The translations under genes and the position numbers were made by a program. Shown here piece by piece: positions 7,597 to 19,270 of a stretch of DNA of 19,270 nt. Under the pieces are notes generated by a model. The model saw only the letters and a list, made by a program, of their open reading frames with translations. It did no database searches and had not been told where the DNA came from. Source of the stretch: Methanobacteriota archaeon (GTDB lineage Archaea > Altiarchaeota > Altiarchaeia > IMC4 > QMZM01); contig JAKFXM010000207.1 in NCBI GenBank assembly GCA_021731385.1, positions 1 through 19,270 on the forward strand, in the 5' to 3' direction. Every line of letters begins with the position of its first letter. Within the stretch, counting starts at the first letter, position 1.

Positions 7597-8808
7597 TCAC
7601 TCATATCTCAATGCGTCAACCGGCTTAAGATTTGCAGCCTGCCTTGCCGGAAGAAAACCTGAAATACATCCGACAATGAAGGAAAACAATAAAGCGCCTA
7701 TGATGAGCTGTGGGGTGATTGCCGCCTGTACAATGGTCTGATCTAATTGCACCACTGCTATATATTCGACTATCTTGCCTAGCGTTGCTCCGATGAGGCA
7801 CCCTACAACTCCTCCGATCAGACCTATCAGGCCGGATTCCATCATGAACATGACGACTATGTTAGAGTTTTTTGCACCTATTGCTTTCATGACACCGATT
7901 TCTCTTGTCCTTTCAAGGACTGATGTATACATGGTATTCATTATCCCGACACCCCCGACGATCAGGGAGATACCTGCTATGCCCGCAACTATCGCCTGCA
8001 CTGCATCAAGTATTGTCCCAACAGACGACCTTACCTGTTCGAGTGTTATTACATTGAAGTCTTCTTCCCCTTTTTTAAGACCTCTATCCTGCCTCATTTT
8101 TTCTTTTATCTTATCTGCGACGACTTTTACATTATAGCCATCTTTGATTCGTATCATTATTTCTATGTAGTCATCTTTGACGCTGAATAGATTCTTTGCG
8201 TCTTCGGCAGTTATGTAGAGGTGGCTGTCATCGTCGGGGTTTCCTATCCTGCTTACAAATGCAGATACTGTGAATCTCCTATCATTGATGGTAATTTTGT
8301 CGCCTATCTTAAGCGGCTGATCAAATGCTTTTCCACCCCAGTATTCATACCCTACGGCTACCTTGTTAGTGTCCCCGGGCTTAAACCTCTGTTGCCCTTT
8401 TTCTATCTTGACCCCTGTGCCTTCCAGTAGAATGTCCTGCGTATCTCCACTGTCCACACCAACAACCATAGGATACACAATCTTATCCTGAAACTTTACC
8501 TTGGCTATCTTGCCGATAATACCCCCTGCGAGTTCAACGCCTTTAACGCCTTTTATAAGTCTTATGTCATGGTCTGTGAGTTTTGATGCTGCCCCTCCGG
8601 GGCCGAACAAACCCCCAGGCATGATGAATACGAGGTTTGGCCCAAGTATTGCGAACTGCTGGTTTATTGCATACTGCAAACCTTGGCCTAAGGAGATAAG
8701 AGATACTATGGCCGCTATCCCTATCACTATGCCTATGACCGTCAGCCAGCTTCTTATCCCCTTGTTCTTGATGCTTTTAAGCGATATATTCAGAAATTCA
8801 TCCAGCAT
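7597..8808 (-). CDS. ABC transporter permease, MacB/FtsX-type (large extracytoplasmic domain plus 4 TM)
   Basis: 403 aa. An N-terminal TM helix is followed by a domain of about 250 aa outside the membrane and a C-terminal FtsX-like 3-TM bundle ending KPVDALRYE. It is a paralogue of the upstream permease. Confidence 0.7.
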   Translation of the reverse strand: MLDEFLNISLKSIKNKGIRSWLTVIGIVIGIAAIVSLISLGQGLQYAINQQFAILGPNLVFIMPGGLFGPGGAASKLTDHDIRLIKGVKGVELAGGIIGKIAKVKFQDKIVYPMVVGVDSGDTQDILLEGTGVKIEKGQQRFKPGDTNKVAVGYEYWGGKAFDQPLKIGDKITINDRRFTVSAFVSRIGNPDDDSHLYITAEDAKNLFSVKDDYIEIMIRIKDGYNVKVVADKIKEKMRQDRGLKKGEEDFNVITLEQVRSSVGTILDAVQAIVAGIAGISLIVGGVGIMNTMYTSVLERTREIGVMKAIGAKNSNIVVMFMMESGLIGLIGGVVGCLIGATLGKIVEYIAVVQLDQTIVQAAITPQLIIGALLFSFIVGCISGFLPARQAANLKPVDALRYE

Positions 8809-8813
8809 TTTCG

Positions 8814-10037
8814 TTACCTGTATCTTAATGCATCGACTGGTTTCATATTAGCCGCTCTTATTGCAGGCATGTACCCTGAAATGCATCCTACGAGAAATGA
8901 AAACGCAAGTGCCCCTAATATTAAATCCGGTCCTGCATAGATGGCGAAATCCTTTATTCCATAGGACCTTACTACATTTTCAGCTATCAGGCTGGCGATG
9001 AGACCGAGTATTACCCCTATTATGCCCCCTACGAGACCAAGAAGTCCGGATTCCGCTATGAATATCAGGAGTATGTCGGAGTTTCTCGCACCGATTGATT
9101 TCATTATGCCTATCTGCCTTGTCCTTTCAATGACGGACGTGTACATGGTAGTCATTATGCCTATACCCCCAACAATCAGGGATATTGCGGCTATGCCGGA
9201 TAAAACGAGCGTGACTATGTTCAGTACGATCTTGAATGATGCAACGATATTTTCAGAAGTCTGAACAGAAAAGTCCTCCTCTTTTTCCTTAACGTGCCTG
9301 TGTTGTCGCAGGCGATCCTTAATCTTTTCTGCAACATCTGACGGTTCGGATCCCTTCTTTACCTTTACCGAGATCATTGAGTACTCGTCTGTTTTGTTAA
9401 AAAGATCCTTTGCAGTGTCAAGGGGTATTATTATCCTACTGGCTGTAAATGGGTCTCCGGTATCTTTATTTATGCCGACGACGTCGAATTCAACATCATT
9501 TATCTTAATCTTACTGCCTAATCTAATGTCTTTTTTAAACAGGCCTTCTCCAACATTAGGACCTATAATCGCCTTGTATCTATCGCTCTTCTTGAGATAA
9601 CCTCCCTTCTCAACCTTTGAGAAGTCCGAATCCCTAAGAAATGGCAGATACTCTGGGTCTGTTGATATCCCTACTACAGAACCAAACTTCTTTTTATTAT
9701 TGTATTCGATATCAGCTGTCACGAAGATTATACCAAGGGCCATGTCAACACCCCTCACCCTCTTGACGACGTCAACATCGCTTTCATGTAACTTGGCCGA
9801 AGTAAGCGTTCCGCCGGGAGGACCGCTCTGGAATCCCCCGCCTCCAGGGGTGACGATTATCCTATCACCACCTATAGCCTCAAACTGCCTATCTATGTAT
9901 TTCTGCAAACCCTGACCAAGGGAAATAAGGGTAACCACGGCAATTATGCCTATGAACACCCCTACCATTGTAAGCCAGCTCCTGACCTTCCTGTTGGCTA
10001 TGCCATCCAAGGCAAGCTTTAGATAATCGCTCCACAT
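8814..10037 (-). CDS. ABC transporter permease, MacB/FtsX-type (tandem paralogue)
   Basis: 407 aa with the same architecture and clear sequence similarity to the 7597-8808 product, for example the shared end ...MKPVDALRY. ATG at 10035-10037. Confidence 0.7.
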   Translation of the reverse strand: MWSDYLKLALDGIANRKVRSWLTMVGVFIGIIAVVTLISLGQGLQKYIDRQFEAIGGDRIIVTPGGGGFQSGPPGGTLTSAKLHESDVDVVKRVRGVDMALGIIFVTADIEYNNKKKFGSVVGISTDPEYLPFLRDSDFSKVEKGGYLKKSDRYKAIIGPNVGEGLFKKDIRLGSKIKINDVEFDVVGINKDTGDPFTASRIIIPLDTAKDLFNKTDEYSMISVKVKKGSEPSDVAEKIKDRLRQHRHVKEKEEDFSVQTSENIVASFKIVLNIVTLVLSGIAAISLIVGGIGIMTTMYTSVIERTRQIGIMKSIGARNSDILLIFIAESGLLGLVGGIIGVILGLIASLIAENVVRSYGIKDFAIYAGPDLILGALAFSFLVGCISGYMPAIRAANMKPVDALRYR

Positions 10038-13587: not shown

Positions 13588-16500
13588 ATGGCACAAAGCA
13601 AACCCCAAATTAGTTCTAAAGACAAGAAAAATTTTGCCAACCCGAAAAATTCCAAAGGAATTTTTGGGCCCATTGAGCCAGAGGCTCAATCGGGTGGCAA
13701 AATTTTTGTGCCCAATCAGAAACTTATAGTTTCTGATTCGGGCAAGAAGGAAAAATTTATTCTCTGGTTTGATGAAATCGGCATTGAGGATGTCCCTCTT
13801 GTAGGCGGAAAAAATGCATCCTTGGGGGAGATGATAAGAGAGTTAAGCAGCGAGGGGATAAATGTTCCAAACGGTTTTGCAATAACTGCCTATGCATATA
13901 ACTATCTGCTGAAAAATGCCAAGATTGAGGAGAAGATTAAATCCGCTCTCGCAGACCTTGACACACATAACATTAACAACTTAATGGAAAGGGGCAAAAA
14001 GGTCAGGGATATAATTCTCAAAGCTGAATTTCCGGAAGAACTAAAATCTGAAATAATAGATGCATATTCCCAGATGCACAAGAAATTTGGCTATGAAGGA
14101 AATCCGGATGTCGCTATTCGCTCAAGCGCAACTGCAGAGGATTTGCCAGATGCTTCTTTTGCAGGGCAGCAGGACACCTACCTCAACATCAGGGGTCCTG
14201 ATGCTGTGATTGATGCGTGTAAAAAATGTTTTGCAAGCCTCTTTACCGACCGGGCAATCTCGTACCGGACGGATAAGGGCTTCAACCATTTTGATGTCTA
14301 CCTTTCAATTGCCGTCCAAAAGATGGTCCGGAGCGATTCTGCGAGTTCCGGTGTCGTTTTCTCGATAGATACTGAGTCTGGTTTTAAGGATGTTGTTTTT
14401 ATAACGGGTTCTTACGGTCTTGGTGAAAACATTGTCAAGGGTGCAGTAAATCCAGATGAAATCTATGTATTCAAGCCAACACTGAAAAAGGGAAAGAAAC
14501 CAATTATTGGAAAGAAATTGGGGACAAAGAAGATAAAGATGGTTTATTCCGATACCGGAACTAAGAATATAGACACACCGGAAGAAGAGAGTAACAGATT
14601 CTGCATGACGGATGATGAGGCATTGAAATTGGCCGAGTGGACATGCATCATTGAGGATCACTACAGTAAAAAGGCAGGTTATTACAAGCCCATGGACATA
14701 GAATGGGCAAAGGATGGTGACGGAATAAAAATTGGATCTGGCAAATTATTCGTTGTCCAGGCAAGACCGGAAACAGTGCATTCTCAGAAAAATTCAAAGA
14801 TAATAAGGACATACATACTGAAGGAAACGGGCACGGTTCTTATTACGGGTCAGGCAGTAGGGGAACTTATTGGAAAGGGCGAAGCGAATAATATTGCAAG
14901 TTCTGAAGAGATAACGAAATTCAAAAAAGGTCAGGTTCTTGTAACAGACATGACTGATCCGGATTGGGAGCCGATAATGAAGATAGCATCTGCGATTGTT
15001 ACGAATAGGGGGGGCAGGACATGTTTCTCTGGAGATACTAAAATTTTAACTAACAATGGATTTATGACTATGAGTGAAATTTTTGAAAATCATGAAGGGC
15101 TGTTTGTTCCTTCTCTGAACAGAAATACCCTAAAAATAGAATGGAAGTCTATTCTAGCTGTAATGAAAAGACAAAGCGAGGTTATTGAAATTGAAACATC
15201 ATTAACAGGAAGGATGAAAGGCAACAGACTTAAACTTACACCAGACCATAAGATGCTCACATTTGAGAATAGGCAACTTGTTACAAAGGAAATAGATAAA
15301 ATCGTAGAAGAGAAAGAATACCTAACAATAATGGACGCCCTTCCAGCATTATCAAGCAGTTCTGAAAGAGAAAATGATCTTGCATATCTGCTGGGTGCAA
15401 TATCAACTGATGGCCATATATATCTAACAAAAACTCATGGAGAAGTTCAATTAATCCAAAAACCAACAAAGGAAAAAGAGGCTTTTATTAAAGAGGTTGA
15501 TGGTTGCTTAAACAAGGTTTACGGCAAAAGATTTAATCCGAAATTCAGAGAATTTCGGAGCTTCGATTTTCCTCTGGAAAATCGAATTAAGGTCAGCAAA
15601 AAGCAAGAGAGTGAAGGGAGTATTAGAGGAAAACCTTGTATAGGCTCTGCAAATGCTTACAGATGTTACGGTAAACAAATAGCTATAAGTTTATTAGAAG
15701 AACAACAAAATTTCATTCAGACACTCTTATATGCTGATGAGAGCCTAATTCTTAATTTCCTGGCAGGGGTTATTGATGGCGATGGTTCAATTAACGGGGA
15801 AGGAACAAGAATCAATATATATTGTTCAAAAGAAGGTCTTTTACAGCAAATAGTTGTTGGATGTCTTAGATTAGGCATACTCCTGCAGGTTACAAGAAAC
15901 AGGAATATTTACAATGTGCAAATCGTTGAGAAGTTAGATAGAATATTAGAATTTACGAAACGGGTTAAATGTCATAACAAGAAAAATTTCCTTTCAGGAA
16001 ATTTTTGTGTGGCTGAGCCCAAAGGGCTCAGACACGTGTCTGAGGCGAAGCCTCAGCCACATGCCCAATCAGCCTTAAAGGCTGATTCGGGTAAAAATGA
16101 TAGAAAGCGTATTGGGACAAGATTCTTTTCTGCAAGACAACTCCTTGATGATGTTAAACACAAGGTGAATTATAAGGGCAGAACTTTGCCGTGCATAGAC
16201 AAAAACCTGTTAATTGACTCTGAAAAAATTAAGAGGGATCTACTTGGATTGTGTCCTGAAAAAATTAAAAACGAAATTATGAAGATACTATCCTCAGATA
16301 CAAGAATGCAAAGAGTTAGGAAAACTGCCAATTTAGGGGTTCAGGATGTTTATAATATAACAATTGCAGATAATCACAATTATGTTGTTTTCACTGATAG
16401 ATACACACCAATAATTGTCAATAACTGTCACGCAGCAATAGTGTCAAGGGAACTCGGAATTCCATGCATTATCGGAACAGGTAATGGAACGGAAATTCTT

Positions 16501-17598: not shown

Positions 17599-17642
17599 TT
17601 GAGTGAAATTTTGAGTAGGGTATCTAGATAAATTGAAGTTTC

Positions 17643-17691
17643 GACACCTTTGGTCCCGAACCGAATGTTTCGGTCTTGAACCGCAGGTGTC
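17643..17691. repeat. nested hairpin between ppsA stop and the next gene (possible terminator or structured 5' region)
   Basis: The outer stem is gacacct (17643-17649) pairing with aggtgtc (17685-17691). It encloses the inner hairpin accgaa-tgt-ttcggt (17660-17674) and an imperfect direct repeat ggtcccgaacc / ggtcttgaacc. cttgccctta follows. Confidence 0.4.
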
Positions 17692-17716: not shown

Positions 17717-18553
17717 GTGGATATTATCTTCCTTTCCGTAAATGATGTCCAGAGTTCAGAATACATAAGAGAGGGCAGCAAAAACCTGCTGAAGACAAGA
17801 TTCTGTACAGCAGATACAATTGCACTCTGCGGGAGGCTTGAGGACGCTGAGAGAACAAAATACGGTCCCAGGTTATGGATAAACGACGGGGAGAGATTCC
17901 CTGTCGTTATAGGAACCTTCAACAAGAATGTTCGGAGGGATGCGGAACAGATTGTTGACGAATTCAAAAAAAATAGCAAAAAAGAGACCTATGTCCTGAT
18001 CTATGGGAATCCCTATGAAACAGATAAGATCTACATAAATGTCAATCATGAGAATTGTGTCATTGTTGTGGATAAAGCAGTATATGAAAAATTCCACGAG
18101 ATGCGGAAACTTGCGGAGCAGCATGTGACAGAGCGACTTCGTCGCCCGAAAAATCGCAAGGCGATTTTTGGGTGTGGCGGAGAACCTTTGGTTCTCCGAC
18201 ATATATCTGAGCGATTTCATCGCTCAGCTATACCCAATTTGCCTCCGGCAAATTCGGGCTCTGACATATGTCCGAGAGGTTTTACCTCTCGGCCACATCT
18301 TACAAAGAAATCCGACACAAGTGAGAAAAAGATTGAGATAGTCAGGGAAAAAGGAATTTCCGGGGAAATTTCTGATTCTGATATAATAAATCTTATAAAG
18401 AAGGGGGATAAGAGTAGTGGGGTAAGGATTGATGAATTTCTAAAACTATTTGAAATTGAATCAAGGGCTAATATTGAAGAAAAAATCTATCAGATGGTTG
18501 AATCAGGCGAACTCTATGAGCCGAGGGCGGGATTTGTGAAGGTTGTTGAATAA
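17717..18553 (+). CDS. hypothetical protein with C-terminal winged-helix-like domain, carrying an in-frame hairpin-repeat insertion
   Basis: Start chosen at GTG 17717, which has the perfect SD GGAGGT at 17705-17710 and a 6-nt spacer. The six-frame ORF begins at an upstream TTG (17633) inside the hairpin region and is rejected. The K/E/I/N-rich N-domain and C-terminal helix-turn-helix-like segment (IINLIKKGDKSSGVRIDEFLKLF...) flank an R/P/G/S/C-rich insert of about 60 aa. Confidence 0.5.
   Translation: MDIIFLSVNDVQSSEYIREGSKNLLKTRFCTADTIALCGRLEDAERTKYGPRLWINDGERFPVVIGTFNKNVRRDAEQIVDEFKKNSKKETYVLIYGNPYETDKIYINVNHENCVIVVDKAVYEKFHEMRKLAEQHVTERLRRPKNRKAIFGCGGEPLVLRHISERFHRSAIPNLPPANSGSDICPRGFTSRPHLTKKSDTSEKKIEIVREKGISGEISDSDIINLIKKGDKSSGVRIDEFLKLFEIESRANIEEKIYQMVESGELYEPRAGFVKVVE
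18133..18299. repeat. hairpin-chain repeat element (copy B of conserved core) lying in frame inside the 17717-18553 CDS
   Basis: Six consecutive hairpins run in order: gcgac-ttc-gtcgc, aaaatcgc-aag-gcgatttt (18150-18168), ggagaacc-ttt-ggttctcc (18179-18197), tgagcgat-ttc-atcgctca (18208-18226), aatttgcc-tcc-ggcaaatt (18237-18255) and ccgagaggt-ttt-acctctcgg (18272-18292). The core gggctctgacatatgtc (18256-18272) and ccacatc are present. The frame has no stop codon and the segment is GC-rich relative to the surrounding gene. Confidence 0.6.
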
Positions 18554-18558
18554 AAAAC

Positions 18559-18942
18559 CTAAACCCTGCAAAACTCATTCCACACCCTGCCCATCCCTAA
18601 AACGTAAGAGGAGAATTCTTCTGAAATTCTTAGTTCATGAACCCCTCTGCTCTTATTATAGACCTTCTCCACCATTCCGGCATTTCTAAGCCTTTTCAGC
18701 ATGTTATGATATATGCTTTGCGTTATGCCCTTTTTTGTGCAGTAATTCTCCCAGCCCTTAACGCTGTATGGTGAGTCTGTCCTGCCCCATTCCTTTATAT
18801 GGCTCAGGAATTCCTTAGATATTTGGACAAGTTCAGGATTTTTCCAGAATATCTGTCTTAGAATGTGTTCTATGCTGTCTGGTGGTTCTTTTGGTTTGAA
18901 TTCAATCTTCAGTTTTGGTTTTTTCTTTATTATTTCCTTCAT
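18559..18942 (-). CDS. small putative winged-helix DNA-binding protein
   Basis: 127 aa. ATG at 18940-18942 is preceded by an AT-rich, TATA-like region (18943-19030). An HTH-like segment GITQSIYHNMLKRLRNAGMVEKV is present. It lies convergent with the upstream gene. Confidence 0.45.
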   Translation of the reverse strand: MKEIIKKKPKLKIEFKPKEPPDSIEHILRQIFWKNPELVQISKEFLSHIKEWGRTDSPYSVKGWENYCTKKGITQSIYHNMLKRLRNAGMVEKVYNKSRGVHELRISEEFSSYVLGMGRVWNEFCRV

Positions 18943-19035
18943 ATCTTATATTATCTCATCATGATATAAATATAAAAATAATTCAATATTTCATATAATT
19001 TGAAATAACATACAAAAAAATAAGAATATAAACAA

Positions 19036-19060
19036 CTGTCGGCTAAAGCCGACAGTTTTT
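19036..19060 (+). terminator. stem-loop followed by T5 (intrinsic-terminator-like)
   Basis: ctgtcggc-taaa-gccgacag (19036-19055) is followed by ttttt (19056-19060). It sits in the AT-rich spacer upstream of the minus-strand 18559-18942 gene, so orientation and function are uncertain. It could also be the first hairpin of the adjacent repeat element. Confidence 0.3.
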
Positions 19061-19068
19061 ATGCGCCT

Positions 19069-19270
19069 GAATCTGCCCCATATATTGAACTGCCCATTAA
19101 TCCGAGACCAGAGGTCTCGGAGCTTCGATGTGGCAGAGCCCTATGGGCTCTGACATATGTCGGAGGCATAGCCTCCGCCACACACCAAATGTGTCGAATT
19201 ATATGAAACTCCTAAAGGAGTTTCATAGATATGAATCTGCTTTGCAGATTCATATTAAAAGGGGCAGATT
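19069..19270. repeat. TIR-bounded hairpin-chain element (copy C of conserved core), MITE-like, truncated by window end
   Basis: The terminal inverted repeat is gaatctgcccc (19069-19079) pairing with ggggcagatt (19261-19270, running to the window end). Internal hairpins are ccgagacc-aga-ggtctcgg (19102-19120), cagagccc-tat-gggctctg (19134-19152), ggaggc-ata-gcctcc (19162-19176), gaaactcc-taaa-ggagtttc (19205-19224) and tgaatctgc-ttt-gcagattca (19232-19252). The palindrome gacatatgtc sits at 19152-19161, followed by ccacacacc. The core matches copies A and B. Confidence 0.6.

Follow-up and report, generated by a model that had tools for sequence, protein, structure and literature searches.

In-frame palindromic modules in an RPA32-like gene of an altiarchaeon: a probable nested stack of small mobile elements

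In this study, we describe a 174-bp chain of hairpins inserted in frame into the gene of an RPA32-like protein on a 19,270-nt stretch of DNA, hereafter called the window, from a Methanobacteriota archaeon (Altiarchaeota; IMC4; QMZM01 in GTDB; assembly GCA_021731385.1, contig JAKFXM010000207.1). We read the insert, with a probability of about 0.8, as a nested stack of small non-autonomous palindromic mobile elements, similar to repetitive extragenic palindromes (REPs), the miniature transposable elements with inverted repeats known as MITEs, or Rickettsia palindromic elements (RPEs), lodged in a region of the protein that tolerates it. From the sequence we infer that such elements would move by transposition, the enzyme being supplied in trans, and that the protein would be made with an extra loop.

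The insert and its host gene

A search with the 278-aa window protein as query yielded a set of 41 homologues, mostly 206-221 aa long, whose named sources are Candidatus Altiarchaeota or Altiarchaeales. The insert is absent from 39 of the 41; its only carriers are the window protein and the near-identical P0002, in which it lies between the residues ...KLAEQ and LT[KR]KS.... An original prediction, made from the letters of the window, had expected orthologues to show a gap of about 55-60 aa, and the closest ones (P0003-P0005, 76-79% identity) indeed leave a clean gap of exactly 58 aa over the segment. The empty site was read from the locus of an insert-less orthologue (L002), where GAGCAG is directly followed by TATCTTACA, the site beginning GAGCAG/TATCTT. 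Measured against this empty site, the insert, named E6, spans 18122-18295, is assigned to no strand and adds 58 codons (aa 136-193). A CAT repeat found at either junction leaves 3 nt of uncertainty in these limits, so that 18125-18298 is equally valid. The insertion proposed originally (18133-18299, about 167 bp) is thus real, but it starts some 10 nt further upstream and is 174 bp long.

A sister strain, GCA_017973895.1, is represented by two contigs, L001 with the RPA32-like gene (protein P0002) and L022 with the gene for phosphoenolpyruvate (PEP) synthase. P0002 lacks exactly positions 18173-18232, which amount to 60 bp, 20 aa and one complete module. This is the only indel between the window and L001 in a gene that otherwise differs by 3 substitutions in about 780 bp (approximately 99.6% identity), and the 114 bp of insert that both strains share differ by a single substitution. 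The gain or precise loss of the 60-bp module is very recent, and since it separates strains with only this small divergence in the gene, the process seems to continue today. Both the whole insert and its strain-variable part are multiples of three in length, as the original prediction had proposed to check. Moreover, the open reading frame (ORF) is uninterrupted in two independent assemblies, which excludes the two possibilities raised against the insertion at the outset, namely that 17717-18553 comprises two genes or contains a sequencing error. Purifying selection acts on the portion of the gene that follows the insert (dN/dS 0.14-0.20). Four longer homologues (P0026, P0027, P0030 and P0041) were considered as carriers of independent hairpin inserts and rejected; their DNA (L012-L015) lacks hairpin clusters, and we therefore regard them as ordinary linker expansions.

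The host gene (17717-18553, plus strand) has a GTG start behind GGAGGT and was identified from the ORF list and from fold and profile matches. Its protein has no match in Pfam. The AlphaFold model of the window protein (mean pLDDT 73) predicts a beta-barrel of the OB type (1-118), a long helix (120-142) and a winged helix (approximately 215-278, pLDDT >85), with pLDDT below 50 over 146-159 and 173-213. Foldseek against the PDB returned human RPA32, chain B of P. abyssi RPA (E 4e-7 to 1e-6) and Stn1, with overall E values of 4e-7 to 1e-4, and the profile of the family matches Pyrococcus abyssi RPA32 in the PDB by sequence (E 9e-7). According to these models the host protein has the layout of RPA32/Rpa2, that is OB fold, helix, flexible linker and C-terminal winged helix. 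The designation as a hypothetical winged-helix protein in the original prediction was accurate for the C-terminal domain; RPA32-like with OB fold and winged helix is the more exact description.

The model of the insert-less P0003 (pLDDT 84.6) has the same architecture, with helix 119-139, a disordered stretch 142-153 and winged helix 155-219. The OB domain, the helix and the winged helix are thus predicted unchanged with and without the segment. In P0003 the insertion point falls between Q134 and Y135, close to the C-terminus of the post-OB helix and at the start of the flexible linker, which agrees with the earlier placement of a loop between the N-terminal domain and the winged helix. For the majority of the inserted residues pLDDT does not reach 50, and a predicted helix within the insert (158-171) scores approximately 64. 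As modelled, then, the insertion site appears structurally tolerant, a disordered linker between domains whose folds are the same in both forms. Between the window gene and L002, dN/dS is 0.13 in the N-terminal domain and 0.14-0.20 downstream of the insert, values that are averaged over the whole divergence; the latter indicates that the downstream frame has been kept.

The insert contains five perfect hairpins, at 18149-18169 (9 bp), 18178-18198 (9 bp), 18207-18227 (9 bp), 18236-18254 (8 bp) and 18272-18292 (9 bp), all with 3-nt loops. A small hairpin with a 5-bp stem, GCGAC-TTC-GTCGC (18133-18145), was read from the sequence and is also found in the fold of the minus strand, so that the six hairpins of 8-9 bp counted originally are in fact five of that size and one smaller. 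As RNA, 18120-18310 folds at -92.7 kcal/mol compared to -50.0 +/- 4.1 in dinucleotide shuffles (z = -10.5), and none of 200 shuffles was as stable; the minus strand of the region gives z = -8.5. The insert alone reaches -90.6 kcal/mol against -33.5 +/- 9 for random 174-nt pieces of the window. In the minimum free energy (MFE) fold, 18121-18134 pair with 18258-18271 and the 3' boundary of the insert is left outside. The segment is GC-rich relative to its gene, as had been noted (0.52 at 18100-18299 versus 0.32-0.45 in the flanks). It is read through without a stop within 17717-18553, the translation quoted originally being correct, and each of the five other frames contains 1-2 stops. The peptide AIFGCGGEPLVLR is an example of what would be expected from read-through of the insert. 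At gathering thresholds, no Rfam family was found in the window or in nine archaeal loci, and a scan for tRNA and tmRNA found none.

Recurring modules and their nesting

Hairpins with stems of at least 7 bp number 38 in the window versus about 5 in shuffles, and they can be sorted into recurring types of module. The U module (CCCGAA-stem-loop-stem-TTGGG, 26-32 nt) combines a CCC/GGG foot and a bulged G with a tip that is free to vary. U units mostly stand as head-to-head pairs around GGG/CCC (CCCGAA..TTGGG followed by CCCAA..TTCGGG), an arrangement seen in the window, in the archaeal metagenome contigs L017 and L018 from JGI, and in L023, which together with L024 represents the metagenome-assembled genome (MAG) GCA_053536115.1. 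With 0.04 occurrences expected, the window contains 5 of the U motif, and a looser pattern gives nine copies. Genuine U copies from all loci have stems of 7-11 bp without a mispaired base, except for two copies with one mismatch each, and the tips are all different; chance matches to the pattern do not pair. The type 2 module (TGTGGC-hairpin-GACAYRTGTC-hairpin-GCCACA, 54-60 bp) is present at 16008-16061, 18173-18232 and 19129-19182 and in L023. Length variation disturbed the MAFFT alignment of these copies too much for covarying pairs to be counted formally, and aligning the insert peptides gave no better result. The type 3 module is of the form TCCGA-x-AGA-x'-TCGGA GC TTCGA-y-loop-y'-TCGAA (54 bp).

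With these types at hand, E6 reads as an outer type 2 module enclosing the small hairpin and a U pair, which itself encloses an inner type 2 module. The outer module begins with TGTGAC (18124-18129), for which L001 has the canonical TGTGGC. The 5' arm of its first hairpin, AGAGC (18130-18134), pairs in the MFE fold with GCTCT (18258-18262) and so encloses the nested modules; the un-nested copy at 19135-19151 was used for comparison. Within it, the unit U(+), CCCGAAAAATCGC-AAG-GCGATTTTTGGG (18145-18172, plus strand), retains the conserved CCC foot, bulged G, AA...TT and GGG around a variable tip. Its inverted partner U(-), CCCAATTTGCC-TCC-GGCAAATTCGGG, lies on the minus strand at 18233-18258. 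The exact GGG/CCC centre of this pair holds the inner type 2 module, TGTGGC-hairpin-GACATATATC-hairpin-GCTATA (18173-18232), the 60 bp that are absent in L001. The outer module then continues with the central 10-nt palindrome GACATATGTC (18263-18272), the second hairpin CCGAGAGGT-TTT-ACCTCTCGG (18272-18292) and the right terminus GCCACA (18292-18297). The central palindrome has 6 matches in total where 1.07 would be expected; 3 contain one mismatch and 3 are exact, the latter including those at 16031 and 19152. The insert is therefore no simple tandem chain, as originally described, but a stack in which modules of at least three recurring types are nested.

Nesting at the apex or centre of a palindrome recurs elsewhere. 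U pairs lie inside a TCAACCTT hairpin (2526-2617 and 2847-2932) and in the loop of a U unit (13627-13743), and type 2 modules lie in the centre of a U pair (15979-16092) and inside the second hairpin of a type 3 module (19101-19200), with further cases in L023. These cases may reflect a preference of the modules for palindromes already in place, at their apex or centre. The picture is biased, however, as an insertion away from the centre would break up the hairpin it entered and escape notice; the polymorphic 60-bp case alone does not suffer from this.

Three further in-frame inserts lie in the PEP synthase gene, which we compared with P0043 (88% identity, intein-bearing) and with intein-less relatives. 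E3 (13627-13743, 117 bp, 39 aa) is situated in the N-terminal tail of the enzyme and consists of U units, with a U pair in the loop of another U. Relatives of 88-92% identity (P0043, P0058, P0078) lack it, as do all others, and it is present in the 99.7%-identical L022. E4 (15535-15588, 54 bp, 18 aa) and E5 (15979-16092, 114 bp, 38 aa) are located in the intein of the enzyme. E4 is a two-hairpin module of type 3 flanked by TTAA, lacking in P0043 and the other inteins, with the same type of module found again at 19101-19200; E5 is a U pair with a central type 2 module. All three are free of stops, are multiples of three and are missing from the 88%-identical P0043, whose intein thus lacks both of the inserts that the intein of the window carries. 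The intein itself (15022-16425, LAGLIDADG type, 468 aa) is present in the window and absent from L022, which is 99.7% identical over 11.4 kb; its presence is therefore polymorphic within the population. In GCA_053536115.1, whose PEP synthase is 91% identical to that of the window, there are intergenic copies of the modules, yet both the RPA32-like and the PEP synthase genes are in their empty form.

The window also contains intergenic chains. E2 (2526-2793) includes a composite in which a small hairpin and U(+)U(-) are bracketed by TCAACCTT and AAGGTTGA. Its positions 2548-2619 are 97% identical over 72 bp to L023 (approximately 8523-8594), in opposite orientation and between different genes. 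Likewise, the second hairpin of the outer type 2 module of E6 matches a type 2 copy in L023 (approximately 14850-14891) with 90% identity over 42 bp, again in opposite orientation. E7 (19034-19255) starts with a type 3 module whose second hairpin houses a type 2 module; two more hairpins come after it. A solitary U unit lies on the minus strand at 34-61. Among hairpins of at least 8 bp, 14 of 28 are inside genes in the window and 18 of 18 are intergenic in L023; other Altiarchaeota loci (L002, L012-L015, L021) contain none or almost none.

A second composite, TCAACCT[U(+)U(-)]AGGTTGA (2847-2932), ends at the probable true start of the RFC large subunit gene, ATG 2933. The ORF of this subunit starts 45 codons upstream of the conserved MWIRKYKP (2797-2932), and the extension consists of the stop-free element. 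As judged from the sequence, the 45-aa N-terminal extension is likely spurious, and the true start is probably ATG 2933, which overlaps the right end of the element.

Scanning species-representative genomes for a pattern containing U gave nine loci, eight of them archaeal and from several phyla; the genome of the window was not returned and so does not belong to these representatives. A metagenome scan for U pairs returned five loci, of which two are real (the archaeal L017 and L018); the other three form no hairpin and were rejected. No modules were found in three scans of viral contigs. A multi-hairpin element of about 70-130 nt, TTCAA AA [CCCGAAAAA..TTTTTGGG][GCCCAGAGAATC..GATTCTCCCGGGGC] TTGAA with further flanking hairpins, has its U hairpin in common with the Altiarchaeota modules. 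It occurs in L003 (1378-1545, between two copies of a direct repeat), L004 (4770-4930), L005 (4590-4760), L007 (1115-1290), L008 (4280-4455) and L009 (1815-1960), in MAGs labelled Nanohaloarchaeota, Aenigmarchaeota, Bathyarchaeota and 'archaeon', and twice in one MAG. Three of its stem pairs show compensatory changes and it has no Rfam match.

Some other observations concern the same loci. The module ACTAACC-x-TTCG-x'-GGTTATATTGCATATT is found twice in L023 (8440-8480 and 14797-14835), with tips TACTGC/GCAGTA and CATTAC/GTAATG that are complementary in each copy. Modules of the forms TATGAAACTC..GAGTTTCATA and TATGA..TCATAT stand directly upstream of genes, in L023 at 9894-9944 (before ppsA) and in the window at 19202-19255. 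In GCA_017973895.1, L022 ends just after the PEP synthase gene and L001 (1-105) opens shortly ahead of the RPA32-like gene, at most about 100 bp from its start; the assembly thus breaks in a short spacer with hairpin-like sequence (window 17640-17690). The downstream gene of 127 aa (18559-18942, minus strand), assigned to the Pfam AF_0843 family in the gene tables of L001 and L024, has 8 substitutions between the strains versus 3 in the RPA32-like gene, which suggests uneven divergence or recombination along the contig. BacA (undecaprenyl-diphosphatase) is present in L014 (4072-4880) as two fragments of 117 and 79 aa separated by a 216-bp gap in which no hairpin cluster was seen, and in the syntenic L015 (7387-8187) as a single 266-aa gene.

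Reading frame, mechanism and rival explanations

The five module events in coding sequence are all multiples of three and stop-free: 174 bp, made up of 114 and 60 bp, and then 117, 54 and 114 bp. E5 and E6 are open only in the frame that is used, E3 also in one frame of the minus strand and the 54-bp E4 in three others. The intergenic chains have stops in all six frames, and one intergenic type 2 copy in L023 measures 58 bp, which is not a multiple of three. The probability that 58 codons are free of stops is 0.08 by mononucleotide shuffling, 0.13 by dinucleotide shuffling and 0.06 from the stop rate of the intergenic copies, so that the original estimate of about 5% was of the right order. 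A random 58-codon insert of this composition would accordingly be stop-free in 6-13% of cases, to be multiplied by a further one third for the frame. The original prediction had offered selection for frame-preserving insertions or loss of disruptive ones; filtering is upheld, and it is best read as survivorship, because the intergenic copies have stops in all frames and some copies are not multiples of three. The pattern fits many insertions filtered by selection, and not elements designed for coding.

In the mechanism that we propose, an outer type 2 module (TGTGGC-hairpin-GACATATGTC-hairpin-GCCACA) would have received a U pair in its first hairpin, with the 60-bp type 2 module in the centre of that pair. 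The stack would have landed at the C-terminal end of the post-OB helix of the RPA32-like protein, at the start of the linker to the winged helix, where it would be transcribed and translated as 58 extra residues, mostly predicted to be disordered. It would persist owing to its length in multiples of three, its stop-free frame and the tolerant region, disruptive insertions being purged by selection.

Several observations weigh against the mobile-element reading. Neither the window nor any of the loci retrieved yielded a transposase. The repeats at the junctions vary, from about 10-12 nt in E3 to 6 in E5, 4-5 in E4, 3 in E6 and 0 nt at the inner 60-bp module. This would speak against a cut-and-paste element of the DDE kind, because such an element leaves a fixed duplication; type 3 modules, for their part, have TTAA/TTA flanks on both sides in two of two copies, with a single TTAA in the empty site. 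Every tip is different yet perfectly paired, which is unusual for simple MITE families that copy and decay. It suggests selection on structure or a mechanism that regenerates palindromes, and points to recognition or selection at the level of structure instead of plain copying and decay. Furthermore, the 60-bp difference may be either a gain or a precise loss, and module copy numbers are based on just about 60 kb of this lineage. A wider proposal would be that Altiarchaeota, and perhaps other archaea with CCCGAA..TTGGG modules, harbour undescribed structure-recognised mobile modules (conserved foot, bulged base, free tip) that insert at a high rate, via hairpins or single-stranded DNA and without a fixed duplication, both where palindromes have their apex or centre and at coding sites rich in AT. 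We put this forward tentatively and consider it rather unlikely as a whole.

Hairpins can also be made in place, without a mobile element, by template switching during replication or by snap-back synthesis. Perfect stems whose tips differ in every copy, junction microhomologies of variable length and nested palindromes, the last being a possible product of repeated fold-back copying, would all accord with this. It does not account for conserved feet and termini common to unrelated loci and to another genome (97% over 72 bp, 90% over 42 bp), nor for the excess of the U motif (5 versus 0.04), and the inserted sequence is unrelated to the flanking host sequence; we consider such an origin highly unlikely. 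Only slightly more credible, and still improbable, is a chain that was selected as a functional RNA or DNA structure, for example for translational pausing or mRNA stability, or that is excised like a bulge-helix-bulge intron. The very stable fold predicted on both strands, the pairing kept while tips vary and the position at a domain boundary could be cited for a function. Close relatives and 39 of 41 homologues nevertheless manage without the segment, the same modules occur in intergenic DNA and in either orientation, and there is no Rfam match. Excision of RNA is unlikely because all five coding events are multiples of three and stop-free, which excision would not require, and because the predicted fold leaves the boundaries of the insert apart and would not juxtapose them as in a bulge-helix-bulge intron. 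Readings as a replication origin (ORB) or as transcription signals were set aside, the same modules being found inside coding sequence.

It is highly unlikely, too, that the 58 residues are a functional protein module, such as a new interaction loop of RPA32. The frame is intact and a PKNxKxIFG-like peptide recurs in the U-unit translations of three inserts, loosely in E5. That recurrence follows from the conserved DNA foot of U being read in the one stop-free frame. A functional peptide is unlikely because no homologue exists among 1.84 billion representative proteins, because the segment is mostly predicted to be disordered, with only the low-confidence helix 158-171, and because a near-identical strain does without a third of it (20 aa). 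Three giant repeat proteins that matched the insert peptide were rejected as spurious sums of weak matches, the sole other match being the window protein. An artefact of assembly or amplification, finally, might be suspected of metagenome-assembled data in which hairpins can confuse assemblers. We regard it as next to impossible, since the window and L001, which were assembled independently, both contain the insert and differ cleanly by 60 bp, E3 is also found in L022, and the same module families are present in GCA_053536115.1 and in JGI contigs. The nested stack of mobile palindromes thus remains our preferred explanation.

Significance and relation to known systems

Palindromes that code for protein in frame have so far been treated as a peculiarity of Rickettsia, in addition to scattered intragenic REPs of bacteria. 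Here a single 19-kb window of an uncultivated subsurface archaeon contains four inserts, distributed over two genes; a core replication protein carries one of them and an intein two. It offers a natural system for the path from selfish DNA to new protein loops, for the tolerance of linkers and inteins to insertion, and for the enzyme that moves structure-defined hairpins in archaea. On the practical side, gene calls and assemblies of Altiarchaeota MAGs are inflated or broken by inserts of this kind, as at the contig end of L001 and in the extension of the RFC large subunit. If structure-recognised mobile modules were indeed at work, in-frame survivors would be common in essential genes and would provide a steady supply of disordered loops in archaeal proteins.

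The nearest counterparts known are the RPEs (Ogata et al. 2000, 2002), palindromic repeats found in frame in housekeeping genes of Rickettsia (PMC10969869, PMC3733652). RPEs are small palindromic repeats that lie in frame in unrelated housekeeping genes, at sites tolerated by the fold and with the ORF kept, and that occur in coding as well as intergenic DNA. The same holds here: a 174-bp palindromic segment stands in frame in an intact ORF, as seen from the gap, the empty site and the downstream constraint, and the family is found in the RPA32-like gene, at the N-terminus of PEP synthase, twice in its intein and in intergenic DNA (2526-2793 and 19034-19255). RPEs are described as single units of about 100-150 bp with a consensus and a conserved peptide, confined to Rickettsia. 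Our modules differ in their archaeal host, in their size of 26-60 bp with conserved foot and variable tip, and in being stacked in one another. As the host is an archaeon, we do not claim membership in the Rickettsia families.

Intragenic REPs are known from bacteria, many of them in replication and repair genes (PMC3733652). Like REPs and bacterial interspersed mosaic elements (BIMEs), which are imperfect palindromes of 20-40 nt with a bulge, arranged in head-to-head dimers and clusters and sometimes intragenic, the U units have 26-32 nt and a bulged G. In contrast to them, they lack a GTAG/CGTC tag, their flanks differ (gaaa, ccaa, gtcg, cctc) and the conserved part is CCCGAA..TTGGG; moreover, each REP family keeps its stem sequence, and in our modules no two copies have the same tip. 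No gene for a REP-associated tyrosine transposase (RAYT; HUH, Y1) was found in the window, L001, L009, L017, L018 or L021-L024. As regards MITEs, a census places Ca. Altiarchaeum hamiconexum at the highest MITE density among archaea; elements, in-frame insertion and nesting are not described there (PMC11602168). Our modules are MITE-like in being small, non-coding and multi-copy, in their terminal inverted repeats (TGTGGC/GCCACA, TCCGA../..TCGAA and the composite TCAACCTT...AAGGTTGA) and in belonging to a MITE-rich clade. Unlike MITEs, modules other than type 3 appear to have no fixed target-site duplication, and no parent insertion sequence (IS) is known. Elements derived from IS200/IS605 (PATE-like) typically insert on the 3' side of a conserved tetra- or pentanucleotide and leave no duplication; such a target is not seen either, as five left flanks of type 2 read GCAGCA, TTTGGG, TTTTTG, CTTCGA and ACAGAA.

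Palindromes also serve as targets. IS1397 and ISKpn1 are full-length elements of the IS3 family which carry a transposase and insert into the loops of REP palindromes. The nesting described here suggests a similar targeting of the palindrome apex, the difference being that the guests are themselves tiny palindromes. Recognition at the level of structure is known from REPs bound by RAYTs and from the attC sites of integrons, which measure 57-141 nt and are defined by structure, with conserved foot bases, extrahelical bases that mark the strand and a variable remainder. To attC the modules bear a resemblance only; they measure 26-32 nt, and there are no cassettes, no integrase nearby and no sign of site-specific recombination. 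A literature search of incomplete coverage found no description of in-frame palindromic inserts in archaea. What is distinctive is the combination of an archaeal host, tiny modules defined by structure, their mutual stacking and unusually many in-frame survivors: a known principle in a new domain of life.

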